A DNA stretch of 61,867 nucleotides, counting the filler, from Streblomastix strix (Eukaryota): the NCBI GenBank assembly GCA_008636045.1. It is 2 parts of 2 records of this genome, joined end to end, with 100 filler letters (N's around TTAATTAATTAA, not from the genome) between each part and the next. Parts side by side here need not be neighbours in the genome. Positions count along the whole stretch, not along the records: positions 31,050 to 61,867 come from SNRW01000088.1; 1 more part is not named here. One strand, 5' to 3'. The notes beneath the pieces are model-generated. The model searched no databases and had not been told where the DNA came from. It saw nothing but the letters and a program-made list of their open reading frames with translations. The stretch's first letter is position 1. Every line of letters begins with the position of its first letter. The translations under genes were made by a program, and so were the position numbers. Positions 26,764-55,399 of this stretch are shown here, piece by piece.

Positions 26764-26942
26764 ATCACAGAATCACTAAAACAGGACAGAATCTCAGCTT
26801 CAAAAGAGCCTTTCTTCTACACGCACACTCTCGATCCGAGGTTCGGCACAGCTTCCTTCAGGTCATTCGGGCTATCGTGCTGCTGTCAATAAAACATGAA
26901 TTTTCAAACTGTAAATATAAAGTTCTATTTAACTATTATCAA
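26764..26942 (+). repeat. ~179-bp direct duplicate of 25541-25719 (3' end of the upstream gene)
   Basis: ATCACAGAATCACTAAAACAGG...TAACTATTATCAA appears at both positions with no difference seen by eye. Confidence 0.92.
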
Positions 26943-27596
26943 CTCCAAAGGAATGTGCATAATTCATAAGATAAAACTATTGCTGTTTTCTATGTTATTT
27001 CTCATGTTTTTTAGTATAATTTTATAACTATATTAATAATCCTATTATCTTTCCCAAATTTAAGCCGAATATTATTCTCTATGAGCGAATGCAGTTTTTT
27101 TGACAAAATAGCATTTTTCACATTAACTCAATTGAAATTCACCAATTTTTTATTAATATATTCAAAATAAATATATATTGCTAAGTTTTGAATATATGCC
27201 TACATTAAAATTCTCCACAACAATGTGCAACATTAAAAAATATTTTTTTTTAACTTTGATTCATTCTAGCACAGCGTTACTAAATTCCTCTGCTCATAAT
27301 TACTCAAAACTTTACATTTCTCATATATACTTTACTGTGAATCTGAGTTTGAAGCTTCCATAGCTCCTCTACTCTCCACTTGGGCAGCCAAATATGATGT
27401 TCCTAATAATAACTTCATCAGTAATCAATGATTAATGACTGCCCTTTATTAAATGAAACTTTTTAGTTATATTATACCAAATTGCACTCATTGAATCACA
27501 ATCATATACTAAAACTACTAATAATGATCTTTCTCAAAAAAAATATCAATTCTGAGACATATTTCACATTTTTAATTTTGTTTAATTTTTTAGAAA

Positions 27597-30245
27597 ATGG
27601 AAGAAGAATCAGAATTATTTCCACCTGAACTGAATTTTGCAAATATTGTCATTGTTGGTGGGCTTCCTTTTGTAGAAGAAAAAAAAAGATCAACGTTCTT
27701 GAAATATCTTGAAGGAGTCTCTAAAAGAAAGATTGATCCAAATTCAGCAACTTTTTAGCCAACAGAAGACAAAAAGTAAATGTATGTGAAAATACTTCAT
27801 TGACTCGAAACTTTAATTTATTGTATTTGTAGGATCTTGTTTGTAGTGCAGGAATCAGAAGAAGAAGCAAAATAACTCGCAATTAGTCTCGATGTAACAT
27901 ACAAGAACTACAAATTTACAGCTACAAGACTTTCAGACTTTTTTGAAGTTGAGGGGGTGCCTGACACATATACTGAGCCTGAAGTACCTCCATTTCAGGA
28001 AAAAGTTTGTTTATTATATATATACCAATTTATATACTAATACATATTTTTTTAAATTATATAGAAAGATTTGTATTCATGGATGCTTGATAAATAAGCT
28101 AGAAGTTAATATCTTCTTTATAGAACTAGTAGTGTTAAATGCCAATTTTTTGATCCATTGCGAGGAGTTGAAACTATTTTTGAAGAAGTTTGAACCTCTT
28201 ATATATACTATAATTATTAATATATATGATATACAGATTGGAGAGTCCAGGCCAATGTGGTCACCAAATGGAACTTTTCTTGCATCACACCACGCTCAGG
28301 GTGTCCTTGTTAGAGGAGGTCCACATTTAGATAGTTTAATTCATGTTCCACATCCAAATGTGCAATTCTTCGTATTTGGATATTTAGAAGCACACATGCT
28401 CACATATTCATATGTATGGAATTTCATTCATTAACTTGGTTGATCTTCTATTTTTCATTTTAGACTAATTTTCTAAATGGAATTCGTGTAGGAAGACCTC
28501 GTGTATGGCGTATTGATCCTTTGGAGAGCTTTGAAGTACCTTTGGATATTGATATGAAAGCGCATCCATTGCATTGGTCAAGCGATGAGAATTGGTTTGC
28601 ATATCATGATATAGATACTCTGCGTTTGATGTAGTTACCTAGTATGGAATAGCATTAGATCATTGTTCCAAACTTATAACCAACAATGTGTTGGTCACCA
28701 AATAAACCATTCCTTGCTATTTGGGCAATTGGAAAATAAGAAACAATTGAAAAAAAGAAATAATAAGGAAAGAACACTGGAAAAGAACAAATTGATGTAG
28801 AAGATGAAGAAGAGAAAGAATATACAACTATTTATCATTCCCCATCGTAATTGAGAATTCTAAATGTAAAGAAATTGTAATTTGAAGCAGTTAAAACAGC
28901 TTTTGATGCCGTAGAGGTCTATTTCTCGTGGTCTTTGAATAGTGAATTTCTCATTGCAATATGTTCAAATTAAGTTCGTAAAACAAAAGTTGGATGTACA
29001 TTGGAACTCTTTCGTGTAAGTGAAAAAGACATTCCAGTTGATACACTTGTTATAAAAGAAGATATTATTAACTTCAGATGGGAGGTATTATTATTTAAAT
29101 TTAATTCATAATATCTTATTTTTATATAATTTAATTTTTTTTATCAATTTATTTATATTCAGCCGATTAATTGTCATTTTGCATTACTTTAAGGTGAATC
29201 TAGACGCCCAACTCCAGTGATTTATTCGACAAAAAAATCTGGAAAGATAGAAATGCTGTGTAAATTAGAATCAAGACCGTGTAATAATCTCTTTTGGGCT
29301 CCAAGTGGAGATTACTTAGTAATCGCTTAGTTAAGTGGAAGTGGTAATTTTTGGGGGACAGGAATTGGATAAAGTGGAATGGCTGGTTTAGGAACAATTG
29401 AGATTTATTCAGCTTAGTTAAAAAGACGAATTGCAAGTTTCATTCATCCTCTTGCATCCAGTATAATGTGGGATCCTACAGGAAGGTATCTTGCAGTTGC
29501 TGTTGAAGGTTCAAAAGATACTGCAGGTTTCTCTGTATATAATGCCAGAGGTGACATTGTATATGAATCTGGATTACTTCCTGGTCTGGCTCGTTTCATG
29601 TGGAGACCAAATGCACCGTTGGTTTTAAGCAAAGAAGAATAAGTCAAAATTGAAAAAGACTTAAATGTATATTCAGAAAGATTTGAGAAGGAAGATGAAG
29701 CATTTTAATAGTCAGCAGAAGAATCGAGACTTGAAGAACTTGATTAAAAGAGGTTTTCATTTATTGAGTGGAGAAAAACATCAAAAAATTAAACAGAAGA
29801 AGAAAGATCTTCATTGTTTAAATTGAGTCATTAAAATAGATCATTAAAAGGATCTCATGAAATTGTATGGGTAACCACAGATGAAGAAGTGCTTGTTGAA
29901 ATTGGAAGAGAAGAAACGTTAGAGAATTTAGATGGAACAGTTATAACCTCATTACCATCTCCTGCTCCTTCACCATTCTAAACTACATCAATACAATAGG
30001 TATAATCTTCATCCCAATCTACATCAATATAATAGATATAATAGGAAGAAGTATCCATTCAACCTCAACAACCTGTTAATAAAGTTACAAAAGGGAAATT
30101 CACAATTGATTTAGAAGGTGTGAAACCAAAAACTAACAAGCAATCAATATTCGGAGAAGCTGTTCCAGTAAATACAGGTTAAGAAGGTGGAAGTGTTGAT
30201 GTTAAAGGACTATCAAAAGAGAGTGATAATCGTGGATGGTTTTGA
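27597..30245 (+). CDS. EIF3B: Translation initiation factor eIF3 subunit b (Prt1)
   Basis: N-terminal RRM FANIVIVGGLPFVEE, then DLYSWMLD, WSPNGTFLASHHAQGV, ELFRVSEKDIPVD, FWAPSGDYLV, WDPTGRYL, FMWRP, KIEKDLNVYSERFEKED. TGA at 30243-30245. Confidence 0.9.
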
Positions 30246-30949: not shown

Positions 30950-31049
30950 NNNNNNNNNNNNNNNNNNNNNNNNNNNNNNNNNNNNNNNNNNNNTTAATTA
31001 ATTAANNNNNNNNNNNNNNNNNNNNNNNNNNNNNNNNNNNNNNNNNNNN
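30950..31049. other. Artificial contig junction (N-run with TTAATTAATTAA linker)
   Basis: Ns flank a palindromic 12-mer at 30994-31005 that gives TAA in all six frames, a typical concatenation spacer. Confidence 0.9.
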
Positions 31050-31055
31050 AATATA

Positions 31056-32385
31056 TCATTCGTTTTTCAATTATAAATTAAAATTATCCATAAAATGAGA
31101 CATTCGGTGCTTTTTATCTATCTAGATAGAAGTCTCCAGACAATATTTTCTCTAATATTGGATTTAATTCATCTTGTACATGTATTACTTCAGACATAGA
31201 AGTTCTATTTTGATCTTAAGAATCTATTTCTTTACTGTCGTCTGATGGAATACCAGAATCTATATATTCATCATCAGAATTAATTTTTAATCTTTTACTT
31301 TTTGATGCTTTCTTCTTCTTTTTTGTTGACTTATCTTTTTAAATAATTTATTATTCTTTATCATTTTTGTTCATTTAAACTGGATTTTATGAGATTTGTT
31401 TACTTTCTTGTAATCTTTTCATTCTTTCTCTATCTTAATTTATTTTTTAATCTATTTCAGTATCTTAAATGCTCGGAGATTTTTCCAAATTTAAGTTTTG
31501 ACCGTTTGTATTTATACCTGGATTTGATAAACTATCTTCAGATTCACTAATATTGTCTTTAATTTTCTAATTTTAAGGATTTTTTTTCATTTTTTTCTGT
31601 TTTTTTCTTCTTTTAACTTCTTAGATTTATTTTTCTATCATTTATGGAACTTGATTTTAACTTACCAGAGAAACATCTGCAAATCTTTCCATTAGATAAG
31701 TTTATAACTCTTTTCATCCAGTAAGTATGTACTCTTTAAAGAATATAATAACTCCAGGTTTGTAATCAATTATTAGATTAAAAAAAAATTTTTATAAATA
31801 TTATTAAAACTTAAAAATTTTAAAGCAATATAATACAAACCTGCAGAAAGTGGTACCATATAATTCCTTTTCTTTTATACCTGAAGCTATTGAGGAATAG
31901 ATATGTATAGCACATCTTTATTTTAAAAGAGAAAAATATAGAAATTAAATTAAAATTGTAAAATTGAATGTAATAATAACATACTTCGCCCCTTTTGACT
32001 AACACATGAAGGGTACGAATAATACAATAAAAAATAAAATGAACAATTAACGATGTTGCTGATGTATTCCATCGTTTTTCACTATTTCGTATCGATATTC
32101 TTGCGTTTACTTAAAACTCCATGCACCGAGCCTCTTTGTAGAAGAAACAACTTTTGATTTAGTAAATTGTGTTGGGTTAAATTAATTTAATTAACCAAAT
32201 GTCTTTCTAACGAGCAAGGGCGTTCGTTATACGGTGTGCGTTTATTCTGGTGAATAATCAATGATCTCTATTTGAATGTCTTCTTTTAACTTTATTATTG
32301 ACTCAAGCTCTTCAACACGATTCCGAAGTTTATCAATTTCTTTTTATTGTTCTTCGACAGCGGAGGATATAGGCGGCTGTTACAT
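31056..32385 (-). pseudogene. Degraded intron-containing hypothetical gene
   Basis: Starts MQQPPISSAVEEQQKEIDKLRNRVEELE. A later exon reads KEYILTG-TGA-KELQTYLMERF, followed by an apparent frameshift. Confidence 0.45.
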
Positions 32386-32521
32386 TTTTTATATAATTTT
32401 CACAAAATTCATAGCGAACAACATTTGACAATAATTGCAATTCAAACTTTGATAATAAAATTATTTTATAGTACAATATGCAATAAAAATGATATTGGTT
32501 GTTTTGATTTATAAACACCCA

Positions 32522-33620
32522 TATGACGGAAACATTACAGCAACTAAATTTAATAAAACAGTTGGAACAAATAACGACATATTGCTAGCGAATAGAGTCA
32601 CTAAATTTATTAATGGTGTTAAAGTAAAAAATATTTTAAATATTACAGGTTAAGATAAATATATAAAATTATGTCATTTTAACACAAGCGCCGATTTTTA
32701 ATCAACATTTATTGAATTTGATTTGTAATGTAGATAGGGATTTGGAAAAACATAAGCAAATTTATACTATAATGATGGTATGGGTGGCTACATATATAAC
32801 TATAAACCATGTATCTTCATTAATGAGCGCATTGATAATCCGATTGCTTTGTTATATGGCGATGGTGTAAATAAAACAGCTGATTTATAGTGCCGATTAA
32901 AAAAATATTGCCGTGAATAATAGATAACATAAACAATTGAACCATTCAATCACCCTGAATGTATTACTGATATATTAACATCGGAGCCTGTTGATTAAAT
33001 GCCAATCTAATTTATAAGTTCATAAGAGTTTTTACTTAATTTATAATCAAATTAATTTATACTAAATAATGATCCATTCACATAAAATGATAGTATGTAA
33101 ATAAATCCTATAGCAACTAGTTATGATGATGATTTGAGAATAGCCAGATCTGAAACAGAAACAGGTAATTCATCGGTATAATTAGGAAGTAGTAGAACAT
33201 CTACTTCTGAACTTATTGAAAGATAATGGGCTGGCGATAATATAAGAGCATTATAAATATCACCTAATGGATAAGCATTAACATTTAATGGTAATAGATT
33301 CGTTGATTTACCAACTGATTAAACAATAACTAGAATAAAAACATTCGGTAAATTAATATAAGTTAATCCATCAGTTGAAGGAACATATAATGAAGAGATA
33401 TGAATAAGTAGACCATCATAAAACTAATGTAGTTATATATAGTTTGGTTATGATCCATATTCAAATTTTGGGTCTATTAATAACTAATGGATTATAGGAA
33501 CTGCTGTAAATACCAATATAAATCCATTATGCATTATCATTGCAAAATCTGGTTAAGAATTTGAAGCTAATAGAGGATTAATGATATCCGCCGATGGAAA
33601 CACATTAACATTTAATGGTT
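32522..33620 (+). pseudogene. Tail-fibre-like protein, fragment 1
   Basis: YDGNITATKFNKTVGTNNDILLAN...QINPIATSYDDDLRIARSE...DQTITRIKTF...RGLMISADGNTLTFNG. Paralogous to 34490-36373. In-frame TGA at 33401. Confidence 0.7.
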
Positions 33621-34167
33621 TGCTCTATTGCATAAATTGATGTGTCCAATAACTTTGTATTATCTTTACATATTGCAAATTAATTAAAAGGGCCGCATGC
33701 AGTCGAGAATCCAAGCCAAAAGCGAAGAACTTCAGTTAAAGCATAGCCTTATCCTCCAAACAATGTTACTGACATATCTCCTTGTGGGGTATCCACATCA
33801 GCATCAGCGTTAAAATTAATTATCGCATTTGGAGTGATGTCAGATGTTGGGGCCGTGGCAGTAACTTTATTTAGTTATATTGCCAGTGTATTCGCAGGTA
33901 TCGTAATAGTCCAATTAACTTAGCAAGTTTAAACCTTGGAACAAATAGCCGTGCTTCTAACCGCTAGTGGAGCACCGATATATTTATGTCCAGAGAATTT
34001 TAATGAATCAATTTGCTAGTCAAAGAATTATTATTTTTATATTTCAAATGATTATGGTTGTATGCCCATAGTCTTCTCTACTTCCCTCATTTATATATAG
34101 CCACTAATATTGTCCGAATGTTGCATTTTTGCCAATCTATTTAAATAATCGCGTGCTAAGAATGATT
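33621..34167 (-). pseudogene. Candidate major capsid protein, N-terminal fragment
   Basis: Open beta-rich frame SFLARDYLNRLAKMQ...GYALTEVLRFWLGFSTACGPFNQFAICKDNTKLLDTSIYAIE, cut abruptly at ~33621. Capsid identity is inferred from composition and context only. Confidence 0.45.
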
Positions 34168-34241
34168 TTTTTAAATAAATAAAAATAAATAAAAATATCT
34201 AACGATTAGCATTCATTCTTATTATTTATATTATAAAGTAA

Positions 34242-34448
34242 ATGGGTCTTATCAATAAGATAGCAAATTTTGAATCGAATATTTTAGGAGGTGTAAAACA
34301 TGCCACATAATGGGTTGCTCCAGCTCTCCATAAAGTTTTTTCAACAGAAGCGGGCACAGTGGGTATCATCCATCCAGCCATCGGTTCAGCATTAGGTGCT
34401 GGTGCAGGACAAGCGGGAGCAGTGGATCGATTAGTCAATAAAAGATGA
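34242..34448 (+). CDS. 68-aa Gly2 amphipathic protein, candidate virion membrane-penetration protein
   Basis: Intact ORF MGLINKIANFESNILGGVKHATQWVAPALHKVFSTEAGTVGIIHPAIGSALGAGAGQAGAVDRLVNKR-TGA. Confidence 0.6.
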
Positions 34449-34489
34449 TTCCATTAATGAATTCGATAATTATTTTTATTTTTATATTA

Positions 34490-36373
34490 ATGCAAAGAAA
34501 TAATTCGCATTCTTAATAATAGATCCGCACGGTAAGATAATTAATCAGTAATGATATTGCTTATTATATCCAGTATTCGAAACGTGGCGGCAACTCCGCG
34601 GGTGGTATGCAGCAAAATGAAGATTATTAACTGTTTATAGATAACGATAACGCTTTAGTTTATGCTGCCAATAATTAAATCGTTGATGGTCAAGCTTCAG
34701 ATTTTGCATTAAAAATTTTCCCTCTTGGATTATTAACGGTAAAGAATTTAAAGGTTCTAAATTTTGATTTCGTCGCATAAATTAACCAATTAATTAATGA
34801 AGCAAATTAATTATAATCTGATTTAGGATCTATTGATGTTGATATTGTTGGGGTAAAATATGACATAAAAACCATTCAGTAAAAGCTTATACGATAATAG
34901 CATTTAGGGTATTTTATTTATTGAACACATATATTTAAAATTTGCCAAATTCAGCTGATGGTGATTTTGCATTCAGTGCCGAGAGTGGGACCGTATGGAT
35001 GTATGACACTGCGTCGTATAATAGCGGATAAGTAGTTCCTGATTAAGTTTCCCACGCTAGTGATGCAACTTCATTAGTGTATAACGCTGTTGGTGCTGCT
35101 GGCATTTCAAATGATTACGCTAAAGGGGACTACTAACATCCTCTATAAGTTTCTTCTGTCTTACCCCAGCCTGATACTGTCGCAGGAGAAGTAGGCACTA
35201 CAAATACTTATGCTAGATCTGACCATACTTATCATGTAATTTTAAGTAATGACATATCCGCTAAAGACGTGGGAACAGGAACAGCAAGTACATCAAATAT
35301 ATATACTAGTGCTGGTCATTAACACCCTCATTAATGTTGATCCCAGTGTTGCAAACGTGCATCTGGTAAATGCCACCGCTGCAGCTAATGGCACCAGTGA
35401 TTATTACTGTAGAAGTGACCATGTTCATGCTCAATAATTAACATAGGATGGAAATATTACCGCAATTAAATTTATTGAAACTAGAGGATTACCTACAGAA
35501 ATTTTAAGCGCTAATGGTGATAATAAAGATATTAATGGCGTTGTTGATATAGCTACCGATTAAACGATAACAGATATAAAAACATTTAATAATATATTTT
35601 AAGCAGTTCCTACTGGTTTCAATTATAACAAAGGAATACGAATAGCAAAAGCAACCAATGGGCCATGTTAAATATTATCTGGAGTTGATCCAGATTAATA
35701 TAACGGAGAAATAGAAGGTTAATAGACTGTTGGAATCATGATAAATTAAAGTCCCATTGCACAATAATTTGCAATTTGTTAATCATATAATTTTGAAAAC
35801 TTTGATAGAGAATTGCATATATCCGCCGATCGAAATGCATTAAAATTTAATGGTAATGGCTTCATTGATGTTGGAAGTGATTAAACAATTATAGGTAAAA
35901 AAACATTTGCTACTGGGTTTGATTCAGGTAATATTTAAATAAATCCTACAGCAACTAGTTGTGATGACGGATTGAAAATTTCAAGATCAGAAGAATATAC
36001 AGGCGGTTCTTCACTTATGTTTGGATGTAGTAGATTCTCTAACACTGGAGCTATAACAGGATAATGATAAATATTTTCACCACCAAGTCATTATGTTAAT
36101 AATCCATTAGGCTTAACATTAACATTAGGGTTTAATTCAGGTGATACAAATAGAGGATTATAAATATCCGCTTGTGGAAACACATTTAGTTTCAATGGAT
36201 AAATTATAGCAGGAAATGGTGCTCCTAATGGGTAAGTCAATCATTCATAAGGAAATCCAAATTTATGGGGTATAAGTAGTACTGGAACAAATTGCGGTTT
36301 CTATAGCAGGGGAAATACTGTATTCTGGAGGGACAATGCTTTGCAATTTGATCCGTATAACTAGGAACAATGA
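34490..36373 (+). pseudogene. Phage-tail-fibre-like protein (near full length, frameshifted)
   Basis: N-terminal coiled coil; repeated YA(R/K)xD(H/Y)xH-type motifs (YAKGDYQHP, YARSDHTYH, CRSDHVH); two DQTIxxxKTF...ISAxxNxxxFNG modules; ends VFWRDNALQFDPYNQEQ-TGA. Frameshifts near 34905 and 35330, internal TGA near 36065. Confidence 0.75.
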
Positions 36374-36404
36374 TGACTTAGCTTACATATTTATTTAACA
36401 TAAA

Positions 36405-36647
36405 ATGGATAAACCAATTAAGCAGCTTTTTAATGAACTGGTTAAATGCCACTTTGAAAATGAGGATGCAATATGGGTTTCTATTGATGCTTTATAAAAT
36501 ATACTCAAAAAAGACAACATCCCCTTTCAGCACCCACTTTTGAAAGTATTACAGAGGATAAATAAATAATTCTTAAATTAATAAAATAAATTATAAAGCA
36601 AAAAATAATATGTCGATGATTGGATTATAAAAATAAACTATTTAATG
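36405..36647 (+). CDS. Small hypothetical viral protein (possibly truncated)
   Basis: MDKPIKQLFNELVKCHFENEDAIWVSIDALQNILKKD... is open with TAR=Gln. Confidence 0.4.
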
Positions 36648-37077
36648 AACAGAAGAAAATTTTTAAAAATAAATGCAATTAAATAAAATAGCAGTTGAAT
36701 TAAAATAACTAGCCCATGCAAATAAAAAAATATATAATTTCTGAAGTTAATGATATAGAGAAATAAATATATACTGACTTTATAAATGAAGCATAAAATA
36801 GTTGCTTAGTCAATCATTAACAGCTTAATTAAACTTCATAAGCAAATTTAAGTTATGCAAATAGTTAATGATTTCTATTATTTTATCACCGAGTGATTCA
36901 AAGAATGAATAATGATTTTTGTATTTCTGATAGGTTTATTTTTCCTCTTCATTTAAATTATTATTTCTATCAGTGTTTCAAATATTTTAAATATCTCATA
37001 ATCTGTTGCGTTATATTATAGGCCGATATTTGTTACTAATTAAAATAATTGATCCATTTATATAAAAATAAAAAATT

Positions 37078-37431
37078 TCATATCCGTCATTATTCTTCTT
37101 CTGTTTTGGTTTCATTAATATAGCCGTTTATTGATTCAGTTATGGCCTTCGTTTTGTGATTTGATTGTATAATTTGTTTTATGTTTCTTTTCTATTCTTT
37201 ATTATTCGTATCATTAGCAAATATATATTTTTCGTTATATTTCCCTTATTATTTTAGTTTTCTATAATAAGTATAATCGCTGTTTTTGGCCTTAGTTAAT
37301 TGATAGAATTATTGGTTCCATAAGCGGAGCTCATTAAATTATATGCAGTTTATTTATTCTATTAGTTGCCCGTCTTTCCTATCTTTGTTTTGGCTAAGGT
37401 AGAATTCCACTTTTTCAAATTGATTTGTCAT
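37078..37431 (-). CDS. Small hypothetical viral protein
   Basis: MTNQFEKVEFYLSQNKDRKDGQLIEINCIQFNELRLWNQQFYQL... Confidence 0.4.
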
Positions 37432-37472
37432 TTTTATATCAGATAAAAAAAATAAAAATAAATAAAATAAAT

Positions 37473-38287
37473 TCAATTCATTAATATTAGGCATTAACTA
37501 GGTCGTCCAATTGATTTAAGAACTTATTATTATCCTCCTTTTTAACTTCCATCGTAATATAACTAATTGAAATATTTTATAAGCTAGTTCTAATTTATTT
37601 TATTATCTTATAGTTTCCACTTAAGCCTACGGGTAAATTATCAAAAATATATATAGCTGTTTGTCTTCTTTAAAGTTGTTTTTATGCTTTCTGTGGAACT
37701 TGTATATTATTGAGTCTTCCTTTTCTTGCATTAATTATAACGCTAAAATAAAATCGTTATCTTAATCAAGTGGACCAACTCGATTTTATAATTGTTATTT
37801 TTCAAATTTAAGCAATTAATTTTTTTCTTATAATTCTTAAATAATCGAATTAATTGTATCCTCTGCATATGCTTATATGTTTGTAGTTTCATCATATGTT
37901 GCTTAAACTTTTTCATTTTATTTTATCCATTATCTTACGAATATAAACAACATATTTTGGGCTTATCCATGTTAGTACATAGTTTATTAGTATTGGACTG
38001 ATATTATAACCTTTATAAGCACTTTCAAATTCTTTATTGATTTGATACATTAATGGGTATGCCCTTTATTGGGCGGACTCCAAATCAGCCGTTTCTGCTT
38101 TTAAATAATCTTTCCAATTTGTGTTTTGTTATAAATTTCTGAATCGCCTATCATATTTCTCGCAGAATAAAGTCGTTTTCGTGAAATAGTTATCTATCTT
38201 AATAAATAATTTTAACCCATTATATAAACCTTCAACGAATCTAAAATTATTGTTTGAAATTTTAGCGGAAGTCTTGACTTGTTCCAT
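37473..38287 (-). pseudogene. KilA-N (APSES-like) DNA-binding domain protein
   Basis: YNGLKLFIKIDNYFTKTTLFCEKYDRRFRNL...W...KGYNISPILINYVLTWISPKYVVYIRKIMD fits the KilA-N pattern (NATKLC...GTYVHPxL...WISPxF). It is followed by a coiled coil; 3' part appears frameshifted. Confidence 0.75.
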
Positions 38288-38349
38288 TTTATAGTTAGAT
38301 AAAAAGTAGAAAAAAAATAAAATCAAACGTTACTTATTTTTTTTCCATC

Positions 38350-38495
38350 GATTTTCAATTCAGCCCTCGACCTACTATAGGAAAGCATAAATGAAAACCC
38401 ATCGTTCACTCGGTACGCTGGATTTCCAGCGGATCCAATTTTTTATGATTTTCAAATTAACCCTCGACCTACTATAGGAGACCATAAATTCAATT
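38350..38495. repeat. Imperfect ~45-bp direct repeat with core CCCTCGACCTACTATAGGA
   Basis: Identical 19-bp cores start at 38364 and 38461 in the intergenic region between KilA-N and the ATPase. Confidence 0.85.
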
Positions 38496-38559
38496 TTATT
38501 AAATTTCAAATTTTCCGAGCCACTTGTTTAATACCATAAATTCAAATTTATTTAATGTA

Positions 38560-39507
38560 CCATACAGTAATAAAAATTTTTCATAACCTAAATTATAAAT
38601 TGAATATTCCTCGTAAATTTATTTTAAGTCATTCTCGTTAAAATATAGCCCCGAAACAAATGATGTGCGATAGAATGCGCGCAGTCTTAAATAAATATTT
38701 GGGACGCTGGGTAATAAAGAATATAGTATTTTTACTATGGCATGATTCACTAATAAGGTGAGTTATTGTTTTAGATAATGAAGACGAAAATCAGTGTATA
38801 TCAGCATTGGATCCTACATCATCGAAGAACATTAAAGTATTCAATAGCTGAGCATCTTTAAGTATAGAAATTTTTAATATTTTTATGTCTGCTGTTTATT
38901 TATCATCAATGAATTTCAATTAGTTTTGATAGCTAACATTTTAAATCAAAGCAGGCACTTAGAATCGTAATATTTCAAAACGCTATGAATATTTATTAAT
39001 AGTTTCCATCACTGTAGATTAAAAAATCACTGCAATTCTTTCGACATATTGTTGGGGCTCATCATCTTTCTTTATTCGGTTATTTTCTATAATTTTCTCT
39101 TTCATTCTCTTAATAAAATCGCTATTGTAATCATATTTTTACTCTCGAAGCTTATAATAAGTGTATACCTCTTTAGTGTTATTTTTTACCTCGTTAAACT
39201 CTGGCAAAAAAATCATTGCCTCGCCTTAAGTTATATTTACTATTTATATACCTTTGCTATTTAAAATTAAGGTCATTGTTTCGTCCGCTCCAAAATTAGA
39301 GAAATAAATAGTGTATGTGTTAATGATTTTTTAATATAAAGCTATTAGATTAGATATTAGCGTTGTTTTGCCCGAGCCAACAGCTCCGATTATATAATGA
39401 TTCGCGTTAATTAAAAACAATGAATTTTTCGTAAGGGGCTTTGTTTTTTACTCATCCAATAAATCTAAGTTCACAAATTATATATTTCATAAATCCGCTT
39501 ATGACAT
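38560..39507 (-). pseudogene. A32/FtsK-HerA-type DNA packaging ATPase
   Basis: Walker A YIIGAVGSGKTTLI and Walker B LMFFDDVG. After a frameshift, ILFITQRPKYLFKTAR provides the conserved Gln strand. Internal TGAs. Confidence 0.85.
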
Positions 39508-39957
39508 TTTTATTTGGATAAAATGAATATTTTGAATTTAATAATGGCCATCATGAAGTATATGTCTTATGGCTTCAATTTTGTTATATCTATCCTATCT
39601 ATATCCATACCCTAAAAATTGTGCTTAACAGTTAATTTAATCAAATAATTATGGTGGTATTTGGATATAATATTGGTTCCGTAGAACTTAACAATTTATA
39701 TAATAAAAATTTTTTATCGTAGAAAAATGAAGAAGAATGAAAAGATTATTCATTGATTATAACTAACGGAGTAATAAATTGAGGCATTTATGAACGAAGC
39801 AATAGCAAAAAAACATTTTGAATAAGTTTATCATTGGCGTTATATATTATATTTAAAAATGCTTAATTTCTCCGAGAAGGAATAGGTTTGAATCAAAAAT
39901 ATTCTAGGGGTCCTTTCAAATTGAAGGCACTTGGCTAGAATGGCCCGACGGAATCAC

Positions 39958-42900
39958 TCACTAATCAATAATGGACTCAATTATATAATCATTAGCTTTT
40001 AAACCCAAGATATAAGGACAACAGCTTTAATCTTTTAATACTATAGCCATAGTGTGAATTCCTGTAATTCCGTTCTTTTGTGTAGCTATTTTTGACATAA
40101 TATAGTTTTTCTATCCGAGTCGCATATTTGTTGCTATTGTTATTGTTGCACTATTAATATTATCCACAATGTTTTATTTATTTATTTTTATTGCCTTCTA
40201 ATTGACACCCTACAATTTTATCTTTCCTTTTTCACCAACTTTTATATAATAATTCATCGGGGCAAATGCATTCATTTCAATTCATTCATTTTTGATAGAT
40301 AAACCAAGTATTTTCTTCTCGTCTAATAAATCATTTTCAATTATTGGAAAATAATATTTAGCATTATCATCATAAAATTATTTATCTTTAATTACGTAGT
40401 TAAATTTCTATTAATATCCCGCCACTGCCGAGCCACTAACGGCCCAATAAGACCAATCAGTATCACCTTCCACGAAGTGCATTTTTTCCATATCAAAAGC
40501 TTTATGCATAAAATTATATATAAAATTAAGATTCCAATATTTGGCATTATCCAATACAAAATAAGCTTAGTAAATTGATGTCATACTTGTGCATGTCTCA
40601 AGGTTTAATTATACTGCGTAAGAATTATCAGATAATTATTATTCATCCATAAAAGTATTTGATAAATGAGACTTTAGCGCGCCCATCTTATCCATGACTT
40701 TTATTTCTGTATATTTCTCCGTGTTCATTCCTTCGGATCCATATAATGAGTTCATAGTAATTTTACAAAATTATTCTAATCCTTTATTTCCTTCTATTTT
40801 CGCTTATACTCTCTTGCCTATAAATTCCTTGACGTACGGATAAAACCTTTCATGCTTATTAAATAAAATTAATTGTTTTATATAATCAATAAAAAAATAG
40901 CAGTCATCGATTAAGAACCATAAATTGTAAGTGCGGAAAGACATAAATTCGGCGTGGATTGATAATAAGTTTGTTGATTTTTTTTATTATTAATGAGTTT
41001 TAATATTGTTTTTTTCATATGGTTATACATATACGAACCAATGATTTCCTTATTAGTGGGGAATGCAAAGTTTCTTAAAATAGGGGGAGATTAATCAATT
41101 ATTGATATATTTTTCGTAAATGTGCCTCTTTAATTCTGCTATAAATAATTAATCACGTCCCCTTATTATATTTATTATTTTTTGTTTATCATCCGTTCTT
41201 CCCTATACGCTTCCTGCCACATACATTTTGCCACCCATATATTTTATAAATTTATGCGGCTCTGATGGCAAAACGCTGGGATATAAGGTAATTGAAATCA
41301 AAGCCGATAATATGAGAAATTATATTATCTGAAGTTTGAACATGAACCTTCTTATTCTCTGGGTCTTAACTGAATTATTTTAATGTGTCTTTTCCTGCTA
41401 AATTTTCCCTATGCATAACGATAGATAAACCGCCAGTTATTCCATTACAAATCAATTTATAATCGTCTATATTGGTTATATTTGTAGGGAGACAATGCAA
41501 AATGCAAAATCTTCGATGCTGGATAAAATAAACGGCTAATATTCTTTTCATTATTTGAACAATATTTATTGCAATAGAGGCAGCACGGTTATACATTATC
41601 ATTTGTGTGTGGCAAATTATTATTTATTCTATCAAGTGTTGGTTTATTATTCTCAGAAAATTTATCGCCTCAAATGGCACATACTGACGATTCGAGTAAT
41701 TGCTTAAAATATTCGAAGTCATTAACGGAAACGTTATTTGATGAATCCCTGCGCTTGATCTAATCTTGAAATCTATAAACATTTACTTTATATTTCCAGT
41801 AAGAGGGAAATAAAATGAACTTATAAGAGTTATCAATATAGGGGAGATAATTAGCATTTAAATCAAATTCTTTATAAGCAAGTGCGTATTTGATAGCGTT
41901 TGCACAAGCAGCCATAGACATAAAGCTAAACGTATCAATTTTATACTCCATGTTAATTTATATCTAATTGTCTATTGGTGCTATCATTATTTTATATCTT
42001 GCACATTATAATACTGCAGATATTCCTACCGATTTTTAAATTATTTTGCATCGTCTAAATAAATATTATATTCATCTTCGCTCATTGAAAAATTCGTTAG
42101 TGTTGAATTGAAAGCCTCAATAGGAAAAGGACAGATTAATTTAATAGCTAAGTATAGTTATCATTGTTAATATATTCATATGAAAATAAACCTTTTTCGT
42201 TGCCTTTTTAGCTGGAGAAATTTTATGCGAAATCTTTTAATGTCATCACTTGAACATAGACCATAATATCATAGATTTTCAATTTGATTTTTGAATGCTT
42301 TAGTTATACAATAATTGATTTCGCTTGTGATGAACTACCAATGCAATTCTTAATTTCCCAGACCTAAGATTATATATTTTTAAATATCAATGCAAAAATC
42401 AAACTATGTGCTATTGAATCCAACGATGGGAACCTCATTTGATTAAAGATAGTTAATTGAAGAATCTATATATTAGTTATCTTCTTAAATTGATTATGCT
42501 TCGATAAATATTTATTTAAGCCATTAATTTATAAAATCATCGCCATTTTTCAAATCATAGTAAATCGTTTTTATACCTTATTTGTTCTTAATTGTCGAGG
42601 CTACAGAAAGAGGAACCAATTATGAAATCTTTTTGCTTGATTTGCCAGATTCTTTTTTGATTACTTTCTCCATTGTTTCAAAATCATAAGTGATATAGTT
42701 GCTCGTAGGTTTAAATTCGTTTTCTCTATTATTTGCTAGTAAATAAGCGTATGTTTTGTTCTGCATTATATGCGGGCAAAATGGCCTTTGAATAGCTTCC
42801 AGTTTCACCTCCTTTATTTTCTTTTCTTCGCTAATTTCGCATTTCTTGATGTACCTCTCATATTGTTCTACGAAATGATGTTCTTTAGGGTCGAATATTT

Positions 42901-44280
42901 TTGATTTACAGAAGGGGCAAAATTGTAATCCTGTTAATGTTTCTTTATTCTAGATATAAAAGGCATGGGTTTCGTTATTTTCAGAGGAGCATATTAATAC
43001 GTTAAACTCGGGGGCACTAACGGGTTCATCAATGGATTCATCGATGGATTCATCTTGTGCTTTTTCATTAAATTTATATGTTTTTGAATAGTAATATATT
43101 TTTTGCTTTGTATCATAATCATATATATTTATATTAATTTTCTCGTTTTAAATGAATTTTTCAAAGAATGATTCAATAAAAAATCCTTTATAGTCTTATA
43201 ACCAATTTTATAATTATTTTTCGGACACATTATAATATTTCATCATGTGCTCCTTTGCCATGCGCTCCCGAGAATGTTCTCTAATTCTTTTATCTGGTGC
43301 ATCGGGATATTTATATAAATTATAAGCGTATAACCAACATATATAATATTTGCATCTTGTCGTTCTCAAACAATTCTTATGGTCCACGAGATGAAAGTCT
43401 ATTAATTCTTTTATGCTGCCGCCAACGCGAAACTGAGGAAGAGCAAACTTTTTGATCATCATCGAATAAAAGGCAAAAATTCGTTGTTTTATGCTATCCA
43501 AATTAAAATTTTGCATCAAAATTTTTTCAGATTTAACATATTTCTTATATTCTTCTATGTCTTGCTCAGTGGTTATCGACTTAGGGATATGACTTTATGT
43601 TCTTGCTTCTTGGAGTAAAATATAATCGCATGAATTTGAAAGATGTCCCTAATAGTCTGTGTTTTGCTCCTAATAAATTACTCCAAAATCAAAGATATTT
43701 TTAAATGGTTTATGATTTTGTTTTTAGTATACTGAGTCAATAAATTTATTTATCTCTTCTAAGGAATAAATCAAATTATTATTGTATATGTTGCAGATTT
43801 CTCCCAGTTCTATGTCTTTCTAAAACTGATATCCCTGTCTTACCTTATCAGCCGTATCGAAAATATATCCATATCTGCAGGTTAGAAATAAAGCAAAGTA
43901 TCAGAGTAATCACTTTATATTTCATTAAAATATTCATTACCATATTTAATAATTTTATCGCTTCTCTCTTCATTCTAAATCATGTCAATATAAAGCAGAG
44001 TTAAAACGAAAGCGTTTTTTTGTCCCTTAAAAGTTCTGGGACTTAGTAAATTATTTTGTCTAATCGAGTAAATGCTTTAGGGTTTATCGATCCTGTTCAG
44101 TTCGTTTATTTAAGACACTAATGAATTTATTTGGATTATTAAAATTATTCCTTCCTCTATTTCGTAAATTAAAAGAATCTAGTTATTGGTTAAGTTATTA
44201 TTTTAGTTTATTTTTTTTAATTTGCTTTTTCCATTTGAAACTAATAATTTGATAATTTCACTTTTCTTTAAGTAAAGCAT
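39958..44280 (-). pseudogene. Protein-primed family B DNA polymerase (pPolB)
   Basis: ExoI YITYDFETME; motif A IGFDFNYLYPS; motif B CKITMNSLYG; motif C FVEGDTD; ITGGLSIVMHR; long N-terminal extension. Ends IIESIIDQ-TGA at 39958. Frameshifts present. Confidence 0.92.
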
Positions 44281-44679
44281 ATTTAATATAAATTAAAAAA
44301 ATAAAAAATATATAAATAAATTTAGTTAGGATAAAATAAACATAAAATAAATCAAATATCAAATATAAATTCTTTGTTTAACATATCAAATTCATTTTTC
44401 AATTCGGGATAAGTTTAATATAAAACGTCGATGATTTCTTTATTTTAATATAGCCTACATTTATATAATTTTATTTAATATTATGATTTATCGATAATTT
44501 CATTAATGTTGGAAACCTCTACCTAGAAAGTACTTTGCCATACTCTTCTTATTTATTTTGAATAATTTTTGGGGGTGAATTATTAAATCTTTATATTGAT
44601 TTATCCTTTTGATACAAAGCGCATACTCTATCGCTGCTGTTTGATAACAATTGTTTTTTTTATATAATTTGTCAATTTA

Positions 44680-45588
44680 TGATAAATAATAATAGTGCAT
44701 AAAATGGATTCACTAAAATTATATCTCGAGTAGCAATTTGTTATAATAATCCATATATTAATTTGTTAATTTACAGCCAAAGTTACCTTACATTGTAAAT
44801 ACGACTGATTTATTCTAACCAATAAAACACTCTAGCGAGAGCATGTTCTAAAACCATAAAACAGGAACATCAACCAAGTTCTATATGAAGCATGCATTAT
44901 TAAACCCATTACATCCGACTGTTTCCATTGTTATACCTAATCATTAATTATTAACGCATATAATTAATATCTGAGGATATTTTATAAAATTACCTATGAA
45001 TGGGCAAACTATCTATATATCTGGAATCAAACCATCGACCTAAAATTTGGTCTTATAAAACTATGTTTCCAAATTAATTTATTTTATTGCTGACGAAAGA
45101 TTTGACAATTAATTTGATCCATTCTTATTTAGACCGTCATATAAATCTAAACTTCCCGCTAATTGATAATATCAATTTGGTGATAATATTATTATATTAG
45201 CATACCAATTAATGCGCTCAACTGATGACTATTAGCTAACAACTTCAGCTATGAATTAACGATAAATGCCAGTCCTTCCAACGGCTGCATAAATATCCGT
45301 TCATTCTTGGGTAGTGAACGCTGGCAGCAAGCCTATTGTTCGCACGGGGAAAGTACTTATATTATTGATTATCTGTTGCATGGACTATTATTGAACGTCT
45401 ATGGGTTAATCATCAAATGTGGTAATAGCACCTGCTGAACTTATATTTTTCCGCTTGCCGAATAAATAATGAACTGATAAAGCATTTGGTGCCAGAGGTT
45501 CAACTGAAGTTATAAAATTATTTGAAGTTTGGCAGTATAAACGAATCAATCCAATAGCTCTATAAGCGGCACTAGTATTGTAATCCAT
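44680..45588 (-). pseudogene. Hypothetical viral protein, possibly structural
   Basis: Long frame interrupted by TGAs (...STFPVRTIGLLPAFTTQE*TDIYAAVGRTGIYRQF...). No family recognised; boundaries approximate. Confidence 0.4.
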
Positions 45589-46171
45589 TTTTCAATAGAG
45601 ATAAAGAAACGCGTCAATTCTTAAATTTATATAATTTATCGCTGAATATACTATATCCCGCCAAAATTTGTATTTAATGAAAATTACTTAATTTATAATT
45701 TTTATTTATTCTCATTTATTGGGTTATTGAAGCAAATATCCCTCTCGATTAATGGATGATTATAATTTGAAATACTTTTCTTATGCATTTATGAAATTAA
45801 TAAAATAAGAAACTTAAAGAACAAGCAATTACGGTACATATTTATATCCTTAATTATCTTAGTCATCAACATATTAATTAATGATAGCAGTATTTAAATT
45901 CAACCTAATTGCGGGAAGCTCCATCAATGCTTATAATGAAAATGAAACATTTCCGTTATATTGTTAATAATATATTTTCCTATTGGGAGTTGAAATTATA
46001 TTGTGTTAAATTTCTACATAATCACAGTTCAAATTATATGTAAAAATTTTTTTGTATATTACTAATGCTATTCACTTTAAAAGAATTGTAGCCCGAGGGT
46101 ATGGTGGTCTCCAATGATACTTAGTCTTCATCTGAATCAAAGCTAGTCATTTATAAGCCAATGTTTGACAT
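45550..46171 (-). pseudogene. Candidate minor capsid (penton) protein
   Basis: About 200 codons, beta-rich, starting MSNIGLQMTSFDSDEDQVSLETTIPSGYNSFKVNSIS; frameshifted. Assignment is by size, composition and context only. Confidence 0.35.
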
Positions 46172-46585
46172 TTATATAAACATAAATTTTTGGATTTCAT
46201 TTATTTCTTTCATTGAATAATTCCATTAATTTTAAAATTGTATCTTAGCCATTTTCTTAGGCTATCGATATAATTTATTTTAGTTCCTTCATCCTCAGCC
46301 GTTTATTAAATTACCTCAATAAGAATCTTAACTCAATTTCTGGGTCGGATTTCGTCGCTAAAGAAACCAGAGAACTTACGAATGAACTATAAACCGTGAA
46401 TTCTTAAACTGATACTTTAATTATTTAATTTAAAAAAAATATAGAAAAAACCGAAGTTTTTTTCATAAATACTGATTGCCGCCGTCAGTGATTATCCGTT
46501 AGCCCCTTTGATTTATGGCTACAATTTGAGTTGTATCAAATTAAAATATTAAATTATAATTAAAATATTTTTAAAATCAAATAAA

Positions 46586-47524
46586 ATGCAAAAAAAGTCG
46601 GATTTGAATAAATCAGAAGGTATTAAGATGCGATCAGGAAACATATATAAATATGATAAAGAAAATAAAAAATCTAAGGGCCATAATAGAGCACCAAGCA
46701 CACTCCAAAAAGTAGGCCCATAGAATTCAACCTCTTAGAATTCAACTTCTTCGAATTAATCCATCACTGTATAAGAACCAGATGATTATATTTAATAGCA
46801 ACACCAAAAATATTAAATAATGGATGCAAGATATAAAGCAAATTAATGGCATGATATACTATTTGGAAAATTAAGCCCGATAATAAAATCATATCGCTGA
46901 TTCGCTTTAAAGAGAAAGAGATCCAGTATTTACTGATACATTTAATCCTAACGCAGTGATAAATGAACCCGCTAATGATATAGCTAGCAGAGCCATACCT
47001 TGGCATCTATTATTTGCATAAAATTAAATGTTAAGCGGTAGTTCATCAATAGGCGCCCCATAAATAGGATACGAAACAGATTCATAATCAGGAACATCAA
47101 AAAAAGACCCAGATGTTCAATAAATAGACTAAGACGCGAGAGGGTATTAGAACGAAAATATTAGTTAATAATAGAATGAACAGTTAGATTAGGCTAAATT
47201 ATGGGCCACTTAATTAATATAGGACAATAAAGAAACAAAAAAAGATATAAACAAATTGGAATATAAAACAGGAGCACAGATTGGGGATAGCCTGCTTTAA
47301 ACACCCCATACACTAATAATCCATATCCTTTGAAGAACATGAGATACTATATGAATTAGGGTGGGATGCCGTCAGTAATGCAGAAGAAAGAAATTTATTA
47401 TAAATCGAGCAAAATAAATAAGCTAAAAAAAAGAAAGAATTATATTAAAACTAGCCAGTTAAAAAAATCAATAGCTGAATAAGATAAATTAAAAAAATAT
47501 GGTAGGAAAAATAAGAAGAAATGA
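46586..47524 (+). pseudogene. Hypothetical basic/low-complexity viral protein
   Basis: Starts MQKKSDLNKSEGIKMRSGNIYKY, ends in a K/R-rich stretch at TGA 47522-47524; frameshifted. Confidence 0.45.
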
Positions 47525-47527
47525 AAA

Positions 47528-47974
47528 TCAATTAGAAATATCGTCAGTCTATTCCTTTGGCCCTCCTTCGATTATTTCAACTATCATTGTTAGGTCATCC
47601 ATTGAATAAACTACTTTATTTAATAACTTTTAAGCCGATAATTATAACTCAGAAATGCCTGATTTTAATACTTTCTATTTTTCTCTCAGTCTCTATTTAA
47701 ATTGCTTCCTATATAATCTTGCCTTTTCTTTAGCCTCTTCTTCTGTTTGATATTTTCGGGGCCTTCCCTGCTTTGGAGCTTCCACTTTAGGCTCCACTTA
47801 TGGCTCCGTTGCTGGCTCTATTACTGGCTCCACTTATGGCTCTGTTGCTGGCTCCACTTATGGCTCTATTACTGGCTCCACTTATGGCTCTGTTGCTGGC
47901 TCCATTGCTGCCTTCACTTTGCGAATATATGTTTTACGAGGCTTTTTTTATTCTTTAATTTCTTTATTTTTCAT
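47528..47974 (-). CDS. AT-hook protein with EPxx tandem repeats
   Basis: KPRKTYIRK-(EPAT/EPQV/EPVI)n-KQGRPRKYQTEEEAKEKARLYRKQFK. 12-bp repeat array at ~47783-47906. Possible frameshift near the 3' end. Confidence 0.65.
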
Positions 47975-48004
47975 TTATTAATAAATAAAAATATAAAAAA
48001 CAAA

Positions 48005-49170
48005 TCAAATTAATTTAAAAGTTCGTTTGAATTTCTATTGTAGTTTATCAATAGAATCAGCTACTTTTCTAGTATAATATGCTAGAATTTCTACCGTTTT
48101 AATATCTTTGTAGTGCTTCAATAATTCACATATAACGTTTCCATGACTATAATTTATAAATATTGCTATTTCGTTAAATTCTCTTTGTTTCTTTTCGAAA
48201 TTGCGTGCCGTTTTTGATAAATCTAAATGAATCATTATTATATTTCCTTTCTTTAGATTCAATAACTAATATTTATTTTATAGTTCACTTATGTTGGCTG
48301 CTTCGTTCATTTTCAAACGGATATATGTACCTTCTAAATTTTCTGATTCATTTACTTATGCAGGAATAAATTTATTCATGAACGCTGAATGATTGGTGTT
48401 ATTGTATTTATCAACGACTTACTACATTTATTTATTATTGGCCATCTGTTGGTCATCGTTTTCAAATGCATTTCTGATAGTTCGAACTATAGAATCAACA
48501 ACTCGATTTTTATTGATAAATTACGAAAAGTTAAAATAATAAGTGATGTCATTTTATTTTAGACAGTCCTATATTTATTTGCAACCGGGTGCGGCCTCAC
48601 CATCAGAACGAATATTTGAAACTCTATGATTATCTACTAATAATTATAGACATTTCAGTAATGCACTAGTTGATTTATCTTTGATTGGATATATAATTAA
48701 ATATTTTGTATTAATATTTATGGCAAAAAATAGTGCTGGATGATTTTATTTATGGTCGGATGCATTTCAAATATTATATCAATTTCCTAGCTGCCTAATA
48801 GAGGCGAATAATAAGACCGTTTATATTTCTTTAATGGTTCTAATTTAATATCATGGACAATTTCGGACTTATCTTTGGCCTTGCTACGAAATGGATTTTA
48901 TATTTTTGGTTGTTCAATTTATTATTTTTATTGAACAGGTTTTGTTTTCTATTTAATTCTTTCCGCGTGAAATTTTAAATAATTATCTAAATAAATTTTA
49001 TACCATAGCGAAATTGTTTTATTTTAAAACATCTATTCTTAATTATTTATTGATAATTATTAATTCAAATAATTATTAATATTTCTAATAAAATTCATCA
49101 ATTTTATTTTATCTGGTTTAAAACTTAAATTATCGATTACCTCGTTAATTGGTTCATTTTTATTACTCAT
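48005..49170 (-). pseudogene. Retroviral-type (RVE) integrase
   Basis: EID...FAININTKYLIIYPIKDKS...NIRSDGEAA...NKNRVVDSIVRTIRN...YNNTNHSA; frameshifts in the 5' half. Confidence 0.88.
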
Positions 49171-49220
49171 TTTATATCTATGTAAATTATTTTAATACAA
49201 AATGAATAAATATTAATCTT

Positions 49221-49356
49221 GTCCGTAGTGTCTCAGTGGGTCTGGTCCCCTCACTGTCCCAGTCGAGTGTCTAGGTTCGACACCCCCCGCTCACGTTTTT
49301 TCGTTCGTTAAAATTAACAGTTCATTTTAATTTTTTCTACGAGTGGGGGGACAACT
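49221..49356. repeat. GC-rich candidate right terminus (TIR) of the element
   Basis: GC island directly upstream of the integrase, ending ...CGAGTGGGGGGACAACT (5'-AGTTGT on the minus strand, compare Polinton AGT termini). No partner found in the window. Confidence 0.45.
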
Positions 49357-50281: not shown

Positions 50282-50368
50282 GACCCAGACTAGGTTGGGT
50301 CTGGTAGGTTTGGGTCGGGTTAGGTTGGTTCGGGTCAGGGTTGTTCAGGTTGGGTTAAGTCGAGTCGT
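50282..50368. repeat. Degenerate G-rich pentamer array (GGGTC/GGTTA/GGTTG)
   Basis: TAGGTTGGGTCTGGTAGGTTTGGGTCGGGTTAGGTTGGTTCGGGTCAGGG... Confidence 0.8.
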
Positions 50369-50545
50369 ATTTTTTAAAGCCGAATTTGGATTATAGCATG
50401 AATTACGCGCCTGTAGGATAATAGAACATAAATTGGTTAAGACAGAAAATTGAGAAATGTTATCTTTAAGTTTGTAAACATAGTTTTCAGCGTCAACTTT
50501 TGTACATCATAAGTAAATAAAATTTCAAGATCATGATGAAATCAT

Positions 50546-50705
50546 CATGCTTCATACTTGGTAAGCAGAAAATTAATCATATTTCATAATTAATACGCAA
50601 AAAATTAGCCATGTTGCATACTTGGTAGAGCCCGATTTCAACATGTATTATACTTGATAGAGCTCATTCTCGACATGTTTCATACTTGGTAAAGCACATT
50701 TTTGA
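50546..50705. repeat. 32-bp-period tandem array, 5 diverged units
   Basis: Units start at 50546, 50578, 50610, 50642 and 50674 with consensus CATGTTTCATACTTGGTA.AGC... Confidence 0.8.
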
Positions 50706-53636: not shown

Positions 53637-54900
53637 TCATTTATAAGCTCTAGCAGTTGTTGCTCGTTCTGAATCCTTAGTAAAACTTGAATCCTGAGCT
53701 TCATCATGTGATTTCAAGTGTATTTCATCATTTTACATTTAAAGTTTTTAATCTTTTGCACTATCATGATCTTTACGAGAATCAACTTCAACGAAAAGTT
53801 GAGTCGAAATGATCGGGCGCGAAAGAGGTGAAACAAGAGTTTCCTAAGTAGATAATTATAAATCATCTACTTATGGAGATTATTGTAGTTCATATCCTTC
53901 GGAGACTCTTGCATCACCCCTTTATTTTGAGATAATCTAAGTAGCTTGCTTCATGCCGTGATTGCTTTTGAGTGCGGATGCTATAGAATCCTGCTCCTTG
54001 ATGACAGCGAAAATGTAGAACTTCTTATTCATCTTTGAGTCTGGTGAGTGATGGGTAAAGACGTTTATTGTCCTCCCATCAATCCTCTGAGTTGCTTGAT
54101 CTGTAGAAAAAGCGTGTATTACGGTGTTCACGGTAGCGCTCTTGACTACAAGTGTCTCATCCAGTATTTCAAGGCGAGTCCTAATATTTGTCTGATCAGC
54201 TTGTTTCGAATTTTCAGGCTAGAATAAATGAATGAAATTTGAAGAACTTTGTTAGAAGTTTTCTCTAAGTCCTGTTAACCAAACAAAAAATTGCTCTGTT
54301 GGACGCTCTCTAGGATCATTTGTTCTTCTTTCATCATATCTCTCTCTTACTAGATTGTTTGAGTGGGATGCAAACTGCTGCTGTATGTTCTTCATCATCT
54401 ATGATCGATACTGATAGCTCTATATTTAACATCTCTTCCATTCTCACAAAACGTAAAGATATAAATTGTGAAGCTAGCTTTACTTATAGCTCTTCATTCA
54501 AGAAAATATTACTTTCAGATCTCTCACCCCAGTGCACATAAAGTTAACTGATGTCCTAGATACTCCTATATCTTGAGTTATTAATCTAATGATTGGAAAT
54601 TGCATGGATAGTGTGTCTTTAAGCAGTTGCGGAGACTTGAACTGTTCAAAATAAGAAAGAAAGCATTGTGTTGTTTAATGATGCATGGTGTTTTGCTAAT
54701 AATTGCTTTGTTTTCTTTGTTCTTGTTAACTATGTCATGAATTTAGTGTGTGTCAATGATATATTCTTGTTCATAATATACTCGATTGTATAATTCTTTT
54801 CTTTCATCCAATCATCAAACACTCCAATTTTCTACAATTTTTTCTTCTGAGTATTATATTTCTATACTTCTATTATCATTTGTTCGGTCTCTCTAGTCAC
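53637..54900 (-). pseudogene. Tyrosine recombinase
   Basis: LASQFISLRFVRMEEM (catalytic R), TVIHAFST (decayed SxRH), FTHHSPDS...FYIF (H and Y); TGA at 53637-53639. Confidence 0.8.
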
Positions 54901-55079
54901 GTTCACATTGTCTAAAAACTCTGTTATTAATTTTCTTCTTTGAATGACTCTTGGACCATGAAATATGTCGCGATTTTTCTAGAAGATAAGATGTCTTTCT
55001 TTTTCGTCATCTCCTTCCTCGGGTTCAGAAACAGAGAGCTCTCTCCAAGAATATGGTATCTGTTATTGTCTGTTAGTAT

Positions 55080-55340: not shown

Positions 55341-55399
55341 AAGGGCTATGAATATCTCTTTCTTTACTGTATATTCGCACTGTTTGCTTAGTCCATTTA

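Follow-up and report, generated by a model that had tools for sequence, protein, structure and literature searches.

The closest described systems come from the same organism. In the accessible parts of Bellas et al. (2023; PMC10120064), the endogenous viruses of Streblomastix strix are stated to use the translation table of their host, in which TAA and TAG (together TAR) encode glutamine (Gln), and a long virus–host association is suggested; Table S4 of that study counts 820 capsid copies in S. strix, or 5.4 per Mb, in one cluster seeded from Trichomonas vaginalis and named the 'Metamonada group'. Among papers open outside subscription, this study was the sole one found to connect Streblomastix with Polintons, Mavericks or capsids, and none described this element itself; in another setting a giant-virus bin was best read in code 6 (PMC13524828, accessible part). 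The window analyzed here is a stretch of 61,867 nucleotides, filler included, from the S. strix assembly GCA_008636045.1, made of two parts joined end to end, and the locus in question lies at 32520–49356, in the part taken from SNRW01000088.1. It very probably represents a Polinton-like virus of a multi-copy family that inserted here, lost part of its length and died; its genes were written with TAA/TAG as Gln, and the host is likely the termite-gut oxymonad S. strix or one of its near relatives.

The window is AT-rich eukaryotic DNA (28% GC) in which the standard code leaves a single open reading frame (ORF) of at least 100 aa starting with ATG between 32520 and 49356 and three in the whole window, the host genes being equally invisible to it, compared with 169 ORFs of at least 100 aa in the six frames of the whole window under table 6. 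These counts bear out the initial annotation, made from the DNA alone, which had described an element nearly invisible to standard-code ORF calling and readable solely with TAR as Gln. With TGA as the sole stop, many table 6 ORFs of one strand overlap ORFs of the other. ORF length alone cannot validate genes here, and homologues were therefore used as evidence. Read with TAR as Gln, the region 33614–49356 holds a protein-primed family B DNA polymerase (pPolB), an A32-like packaging ATPase, a KilA-N gene, a likely RVE integrase and part of a major capsid gene.

The use of the code was evaluated by mapping relatives onto the codons of the window and scoring the family-majority residue of each column. 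The alignment of TAR codons with conserved Gln, which the initial annotation had named as a check, was indeed found: in the capsid fragment 10 of 11 TAR codons stand at columns with a Gln majority (background 14 of 186 columns), and where the window keeps Gln at conserved Gln columns, 17 of the 29 codons (59%) are TAR, a share near that of the host (~68–82% of Gln codons in seven long ORFs of the window). For pPolB the figure was 9 of 26 TAR codons (background 40 of 695), the misses including columns that vary with respect to distant relatives and a small number of changes, at Trp, Ser, Leu and Lys columns, that are plainly due to decay. A C-to-T change at His or Pro columns is tolerable only after gene death, and the matching change was seen in 2 of 31 such columns (6%; Fisher p 1.5e-5 against the Gln columns, with columns taken as independent). 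Additionally, eight distant relatives, which are related to one another and whose own code is not visible, have Gln facing TAR in 28 of 86 cells and facing non-Gln codons in 51 of 1189. On this alignment evidence the recoding is genuine, and TAR was being used at a time when the genes still functioned. Adoption of the host code by the lineage, as the initial annotation had proposed, is supported by these alignments; for S. strix viruses as such it had already been stated by Bellas et al. (PMC10120064, accessible part).

The capsid gene was missing from the initial gene list and was added by this analysis, on the basis of homologues and of the fold of a relative. What is present, at 33614–34165 on the minus strand, corresponds to the N-terminal ~185 of ~650 codons; the start codon is absent and the remainder is not in the window. 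Used as a query, the fragment found 135 proteins, with S. strix named on all 120 of those listed, and it is 48–75% identical to a family of ~650-aa proteins of which many S. strix copies keep frames of 644–658 aa, 55–75% identical among themselves. The family is missed by Pfam and PDB sequence searches, and no relatives came from scanning metagenomes with the capsid alignment or from two scans of genome contigs. A profile search of 1.84 billion representative proteins gave 210 matches at E ≤ 0.001, with full-length distant relatives among the best 150 of the 210; these relatives are unnamed or 'hypothetical' and lie on contigs of 2.5–21.8 kb. Eight unannotated full-length relatives (P0192, P0210, P0248, P0255, P0257, P0266, P0269 and P0300) are 23–31% identical to the relative P0066 and come from metagenome contigs of up to 21.8 kb, without a Pfam match.

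Folding of P0066, a full-length relative of the fragment, with an alignment of 40 rows (15 of them distant relatives) gave a predicted structure with a predicted local distance difference test score (pLDDT) of 82.5 and a predicted template modelling score (pTM) of 0.86. Foldseek matched this model to the capsids of mavirus, Paramecium bursaria chlorella virus 1 (PBCV-1), faustovirus and Sputnik at E 2e-12 to 2e-9, mavirus being the top match (E 2.3e-12). VIA-align returned viral capsid or scaffold proteins in all 50 listed rows, with PBCV-1 at Z 15.2 (337 aligned positions, root-mean-square deviation 3.5), and sequence identity to all of the matched capsids is 7–10%. An Atlas feature search placed capsid clusters of nucleocytoplasmic large DNA viruses (NCLDV) and of Sputnik at 0.95–0.96 and listed a Parabasalia cluster at 0.96. 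The family is thus predicted to have a double-jelly-roll major capsid protein, and a jelly-roll capsid in the family, on which the initial annotation had made its reading depend, is what the model provides through its matches to mavirus and PBCV-1.

The other core genes had been recognized at the outset, with different degrees of support. pPolB (39958–44280, minus strand) matches Pfam DNA_pol_B_2 (PF03175, E 3.7e-10) and reads DTDW at motif C, which confirms its presence; its fragment 42272–43900 found 41 proteins as a query, 38 of them named S. strix and 3 unnamed. KilA-N (37480–38287, minus strand), in a frameshifted gene with a coiled coil, is equally secure (PF04383, E 1.6e-7). The A32-like ATPase (38490–39506, minus strand) has Walker A (GAVGSGKT) and Walker B (FFDD) motifs and, with X placed at its two stops, its best Pfam match is Pox_A32 at E 4.6e-4, although its 20.2 bits fall under the curated cut-off of 22.8. 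For the likely RVE integrase (48005–49170, minus strand) the rve match is weak (E 0.033, third of 4), the D-D-D motifs were read by eye, and searches of PDB and plasmid sequences gave no match.

Nearly all of these core genes are broken, and the 'tightly packed, apparently intronless ORFs' of the initial annotation were overstated. A frameshift-aware alignment places nine frameshifts in pPolB (~43861, 42396, 42130, 41993, 41527, 41289, 41098, 41087 and 41013) in addition to two TGA stops (41672 and 40284), one lesion lying inside polymerase motif A. Two TGA stops and one frameshift interrupt the ATPase, the KilA-N and fibre-like genes are frameshifted, and the integrase has a frameshift near 48724, where seven contigs of a termite gut metagenome run (X1, the sole run with this stretch) differ by one base. 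Two X1 contigs without gaps, at 40854–41479 (0 differences) and 41714–42342 (1 difference), span and reproduce six of the nine pPolB frameshifts; therefore these breaks are present in sequenced DNA. In total, 6852 X1 contigs align to the stretch at ≥80%, and the summed depth of 1,200–8,000 in most bins, compared with 7–11 for near-identical contigs, is not a measure of copy number. Most database relatives of pPolB and of the capsid are also fragmentary.

The left side is chimeric. The capsid gene stops at ~33614 and abuts a 1.1-kb fibre-like piece (32524–33619, plus strand) with ~6 nt of overlap and with the orientation of the family kept; this piece belongs to another copy, so that the 17 kb initially taken as one element are not a single unit. 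It is cut at both ends, contains one internal TGA and begins abruptly at 32524 beside a different repeat. That repeat (31842–32524) has a minus-strand coiled-coil-like frame and is represented by one contig (depth 392, 54 differences), which then leaves the sequence of the window. Other X1 contigs continue with fibre-like sequence at 33618/33619 and join 35476 to 32600. The right terminus is likely at 49343–49356, where the minus strand reads 5'-AGTTGT, resembling the AGTAGT start common to five related loci; no left terminal inverted repeat that would pair with it was found within the window. The copy is a pseudogenised chimera, decayed and rearranged, of a high-copy family.

By analogy with Polinton biology, an active element of this family would be a linear DNA copied by its protein-primed polymerase, inserted via the integrase and packed by the A32-like ATPase into an icosahedral double-jelly-roll capsid. 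Since TAR means Gln to the ribosome of the host, TAR became fixed at Gln sites during selection, as the alignments show, and the lineage would thereby be tied to recoded hosts. After insertion, this copy lost function through frameshifts and TGA stops. The fibre-like piece from a different copy, in matching orientation, took the place of its left part; a deletion or recombination joining two neighbouring copies is the likely cause, since the join keeps the family orientation and shows an overlap of ~6 nt. We infer that the family formed particles because full-length capsid frames are conserved in many copies.

Several points weigh against this reading of the locus as a dead insertion of a recoded virus. 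The majority of pPolB TAR codons (17 of 26) are off the family-Gln columns, most relatives there being only ~40% identical, and the integrase and ATPase matches both fall under the curated Pfam cut-offs. P0066, the protein that folded well, is not the window's own but a relative that matches it at 55% identity along the fragment, and a first capsid model, built from 64 rows of S. strix copies only, reached a pLDDT of 46 with no structural match. No single-jelly-roll minor capsid was identified, the candidate frame at 44719–46200 having no matches, and no cysteine protease of the adenain type appeared among the 126 frames of the window scanned with Pfam, the left part of the element being absent from the window; the initial annotation had likewise found no such protease. 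X1 is possibly the window's own source, and the 33619 junction has no bridging contig among the 16 listed of ~7,700 pieces.

This unbridged junction is also what speaks for a copy that is intact in the cell and broken only by assembly or amplification of a high-copy repeat. Stops within genes are described as possible assembly artefacts in other protists (PMC10120064, accessible part), and 1.5 kb further left the scaffold has N gaps; however, the contigs that reproduce six pPolB frameshifts and the fragmentary state of most database relatives run counter to this, and such an artefact, improbable for the copy as a whole, matters mainly for the junction alone, which may be an amplification chimera. 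Much less probable still is a standard-code virus inserted once, with TAR as tolerated mutational decay: AT-rich DNA and the TAR codons at Trp, Ser, Leu, Lys and Glu columns would fit it, but the gap between Gln and His/Pro columns (59% and 6%) and the nearness to the host TAR share largely refute it. A spread as transposon only, with the capsid genes as passengers and no particles after recoding, is unlikely, though less so than these two. The family is known here from its genes, no particle, RNA or free genome having been observed, neither a protease nor a minor capsid was identified, and no relatives were found in viral contigs scanned with pPolB, with the capsid alignment and with three of the distant capsids. 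Against this stand the many copies with 644–658-aa capsid frames and a foldable double jelly roll, and the use of TAR at conserved capsid Gln sites; frame conservation and TAR at Gln sites both indicate that capsid function was selected for once the code had changed. A dead insertion of a recoded Polinton-like virus remains the preferred explanation of the locus.

The remaining genes of the element are mostly orphans. Divergent from the capsid gene, a small open ORF of 68 aa (34242–34448, plus strand) is Gly/Ala-rich, starts with Met-Gly and has no Pfam match; its N-terminus is modestly amphipathic (hydrophobic moment 0.53). Its product is a possible membrane-active or cementing virion protein, because small amphipathic ORFs hold the same position by the capsid gene of a related metagenome locus (L001, described below). 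A repeat gene at 34490–36373 (plus strand; about two frameshifts and one TGA) is 74–82% identical in patches to 32524–33619. Two fibre-like genes had been proposed, and two mutually homologous stretches do exist, one of them being the cut fragment of another copy; no Pfam, PHROG or phage match was found, and the fibre label is putative, these searches giving it no support. Further orphan ORFs lie at 36405–36698 (~97 aa, plus strand), 37087–37432 (~115 aa, start approximate, minus strand) and 44352–44630 (start approximate, minus strand), and a pair of intergenic 43-nt direct repeats, 88% alike, occupies 38350–38489. The frame of ~490 codons at 44719–46200 (minus strand) has 7 TGA stops and is a candidate minor capsid or spike for which homologue and sequence searches gave no match, and a broken orphan gene lies at 46560–47478 (plus strand). 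An open ORF of 148 aa (47528–47974, minus strand) contains 12-nt tandem repeats; the AT-hook protein proposed for it retains an AT-hook-like GRPRK motif, with no AT_hook Pfam match at E ≤ 5.

Elsewhere in the window, a host gene with WD40-like repeats at 28416–30245, which we take to resemble the translation factors eIF3b/eIF2A, uses TAR in 31 of the 40 Gln codons of its frame. Scaffold N gaps are found at 22400–22499, 30950–30993 and 31006–31049, the first bordered by an exact 127-nt repeat (22273/22500) that is probably an assembly overlap, and a 186-nt direct repeat (25541–25726 and 26764–26949; 99% identical) recurs 1.2 kb apart. Right of the element, G-rich tandem arrays of 15–20-nt and 32-nt units are located at 50291–50343 and 50544–50700, and the region 53637–61867 has higher GC (0.28–0.37) and several broken table 6 frames that may resemble genes of DIRS-type retrotransposons.

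The S. strix elements of the 'Metamonada group' (PMC10120064, accessible part) share with this family the host, TAA/TAG as Gln, a high copy number and a double-jelly-roll capsid. They differ in that four of their named capsids (EZS28_010462, 022745, 002970 and 017327) have ~560 aa with ~32% identity to T. vaginalis and are absent from the 120 listed ~650-aa matches. Additionally, a profile of the window capsid matched the L001 capsid in one short motif only, which is not significant (E 0.41); that capsid was classed as Trichomonas-type by eye. As far as these sequences and the accessible part of that study reach, the window capsid family seems to be separate from the published Trichomonas-type S. 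strix capsids, although the Atlas search also listed a Parabasalia cluster (0.96). Code adoption by S. strix viruses is already published there, the present alignments confirming its statement that integrating DNA viruses can adopt the reassigned stop codons of a eukaryote, and what is new is modest: a capsid family that seems distinct, is known in this window from a dead fragment and has full-length but distant relatives encoded on metagenome contigs that reach ~21 kb. The comparison suggests that the 820 published capsid copies undercount the viral load of the S. strix genome. We lean, by a small degree, towards a second, uncounted Polinton-like lineage of S. strix, whose ~650-aa capsid would have diverged too far to be picked up by Pfam, PDB or Trichomonas-seeded searches, whose distant kin sit on those contigs, perhaps complete genomes of viruses from other gut or anaerobic protists, and whose Gln codons were rewritten after entry into a recoded host. 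If so, the rewritten code would shut this oxymonad branch out of hosts with the standard code and so put the genetic code directly to the test as a barrier to host range, and recoded and standard-code relatives together would allow host entry to be dated and recoding to be examined as a host lock-in.

Six metagenome loci (L001–L006) resemble the element in pPolB, Pox_A32 ATPase, small amphipathic genes placed divergently to the capsid gene and an AGTAGT start, and differ in their standard code, other capsid type and gene order, and in the open pPolB of L001. The C-terminal part of the window pPolB is 36% identical to that of L001, whereas the two ATPases showed no significant similarity. L001 (123–11023) is a largely intact Polinton-like element that begins with AGTAGT and has an open 1584-aa pPolB, a capsid-like gene, a Pox_A32 ATPase and a pair of small amphipathic ORFs, and of which L002–L006 are decayed copies; its standard code is seen in 0 TAR among the 1584 pPolB codons and in 7 of 9 ORFs that end in TAA/TAG. 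The flank of the element in L005 (1–7700) carries host genes (small GTPases, Rad23-like), which are compact and apparently intronless and for this reason suggest a trichomonad-like host.

Virophages of the mavirus type pair pPolB with an RVE integrase, and the mavirus capsid is the top Foldseek match; they differ in that VIA-align puts NCLDV capsids higher (Z 15.2 compared with 11.7), no protease was found here and there is no evidence of a helper virus, the nearest capsid thus varying with the tool (mavirus by Foldseek, PBCV-1 by VIA-align). Mavericks/Polintons are defined by their gene set and have terminal inverted repeats with AG...CT ends; those of Trichomonas are cited in PMC10120064. 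The element differs from them in having one end only, no identified cysteine protease or minor capsid, a non-standard code and a capsid invisible to Pfam and PDB sequence searches, and resembles them in pPolB, the likely RVE integrase, the A32-like ATPase, the capsid, a length of ~16 kb and an AGT-type end. With Polinton-like viruses in the wider sense, it has in common a pPolB (broken in this copy), a predicted double-jelly-roll capsid (at the level of the family) and an A32/FtsK-type ATPase.

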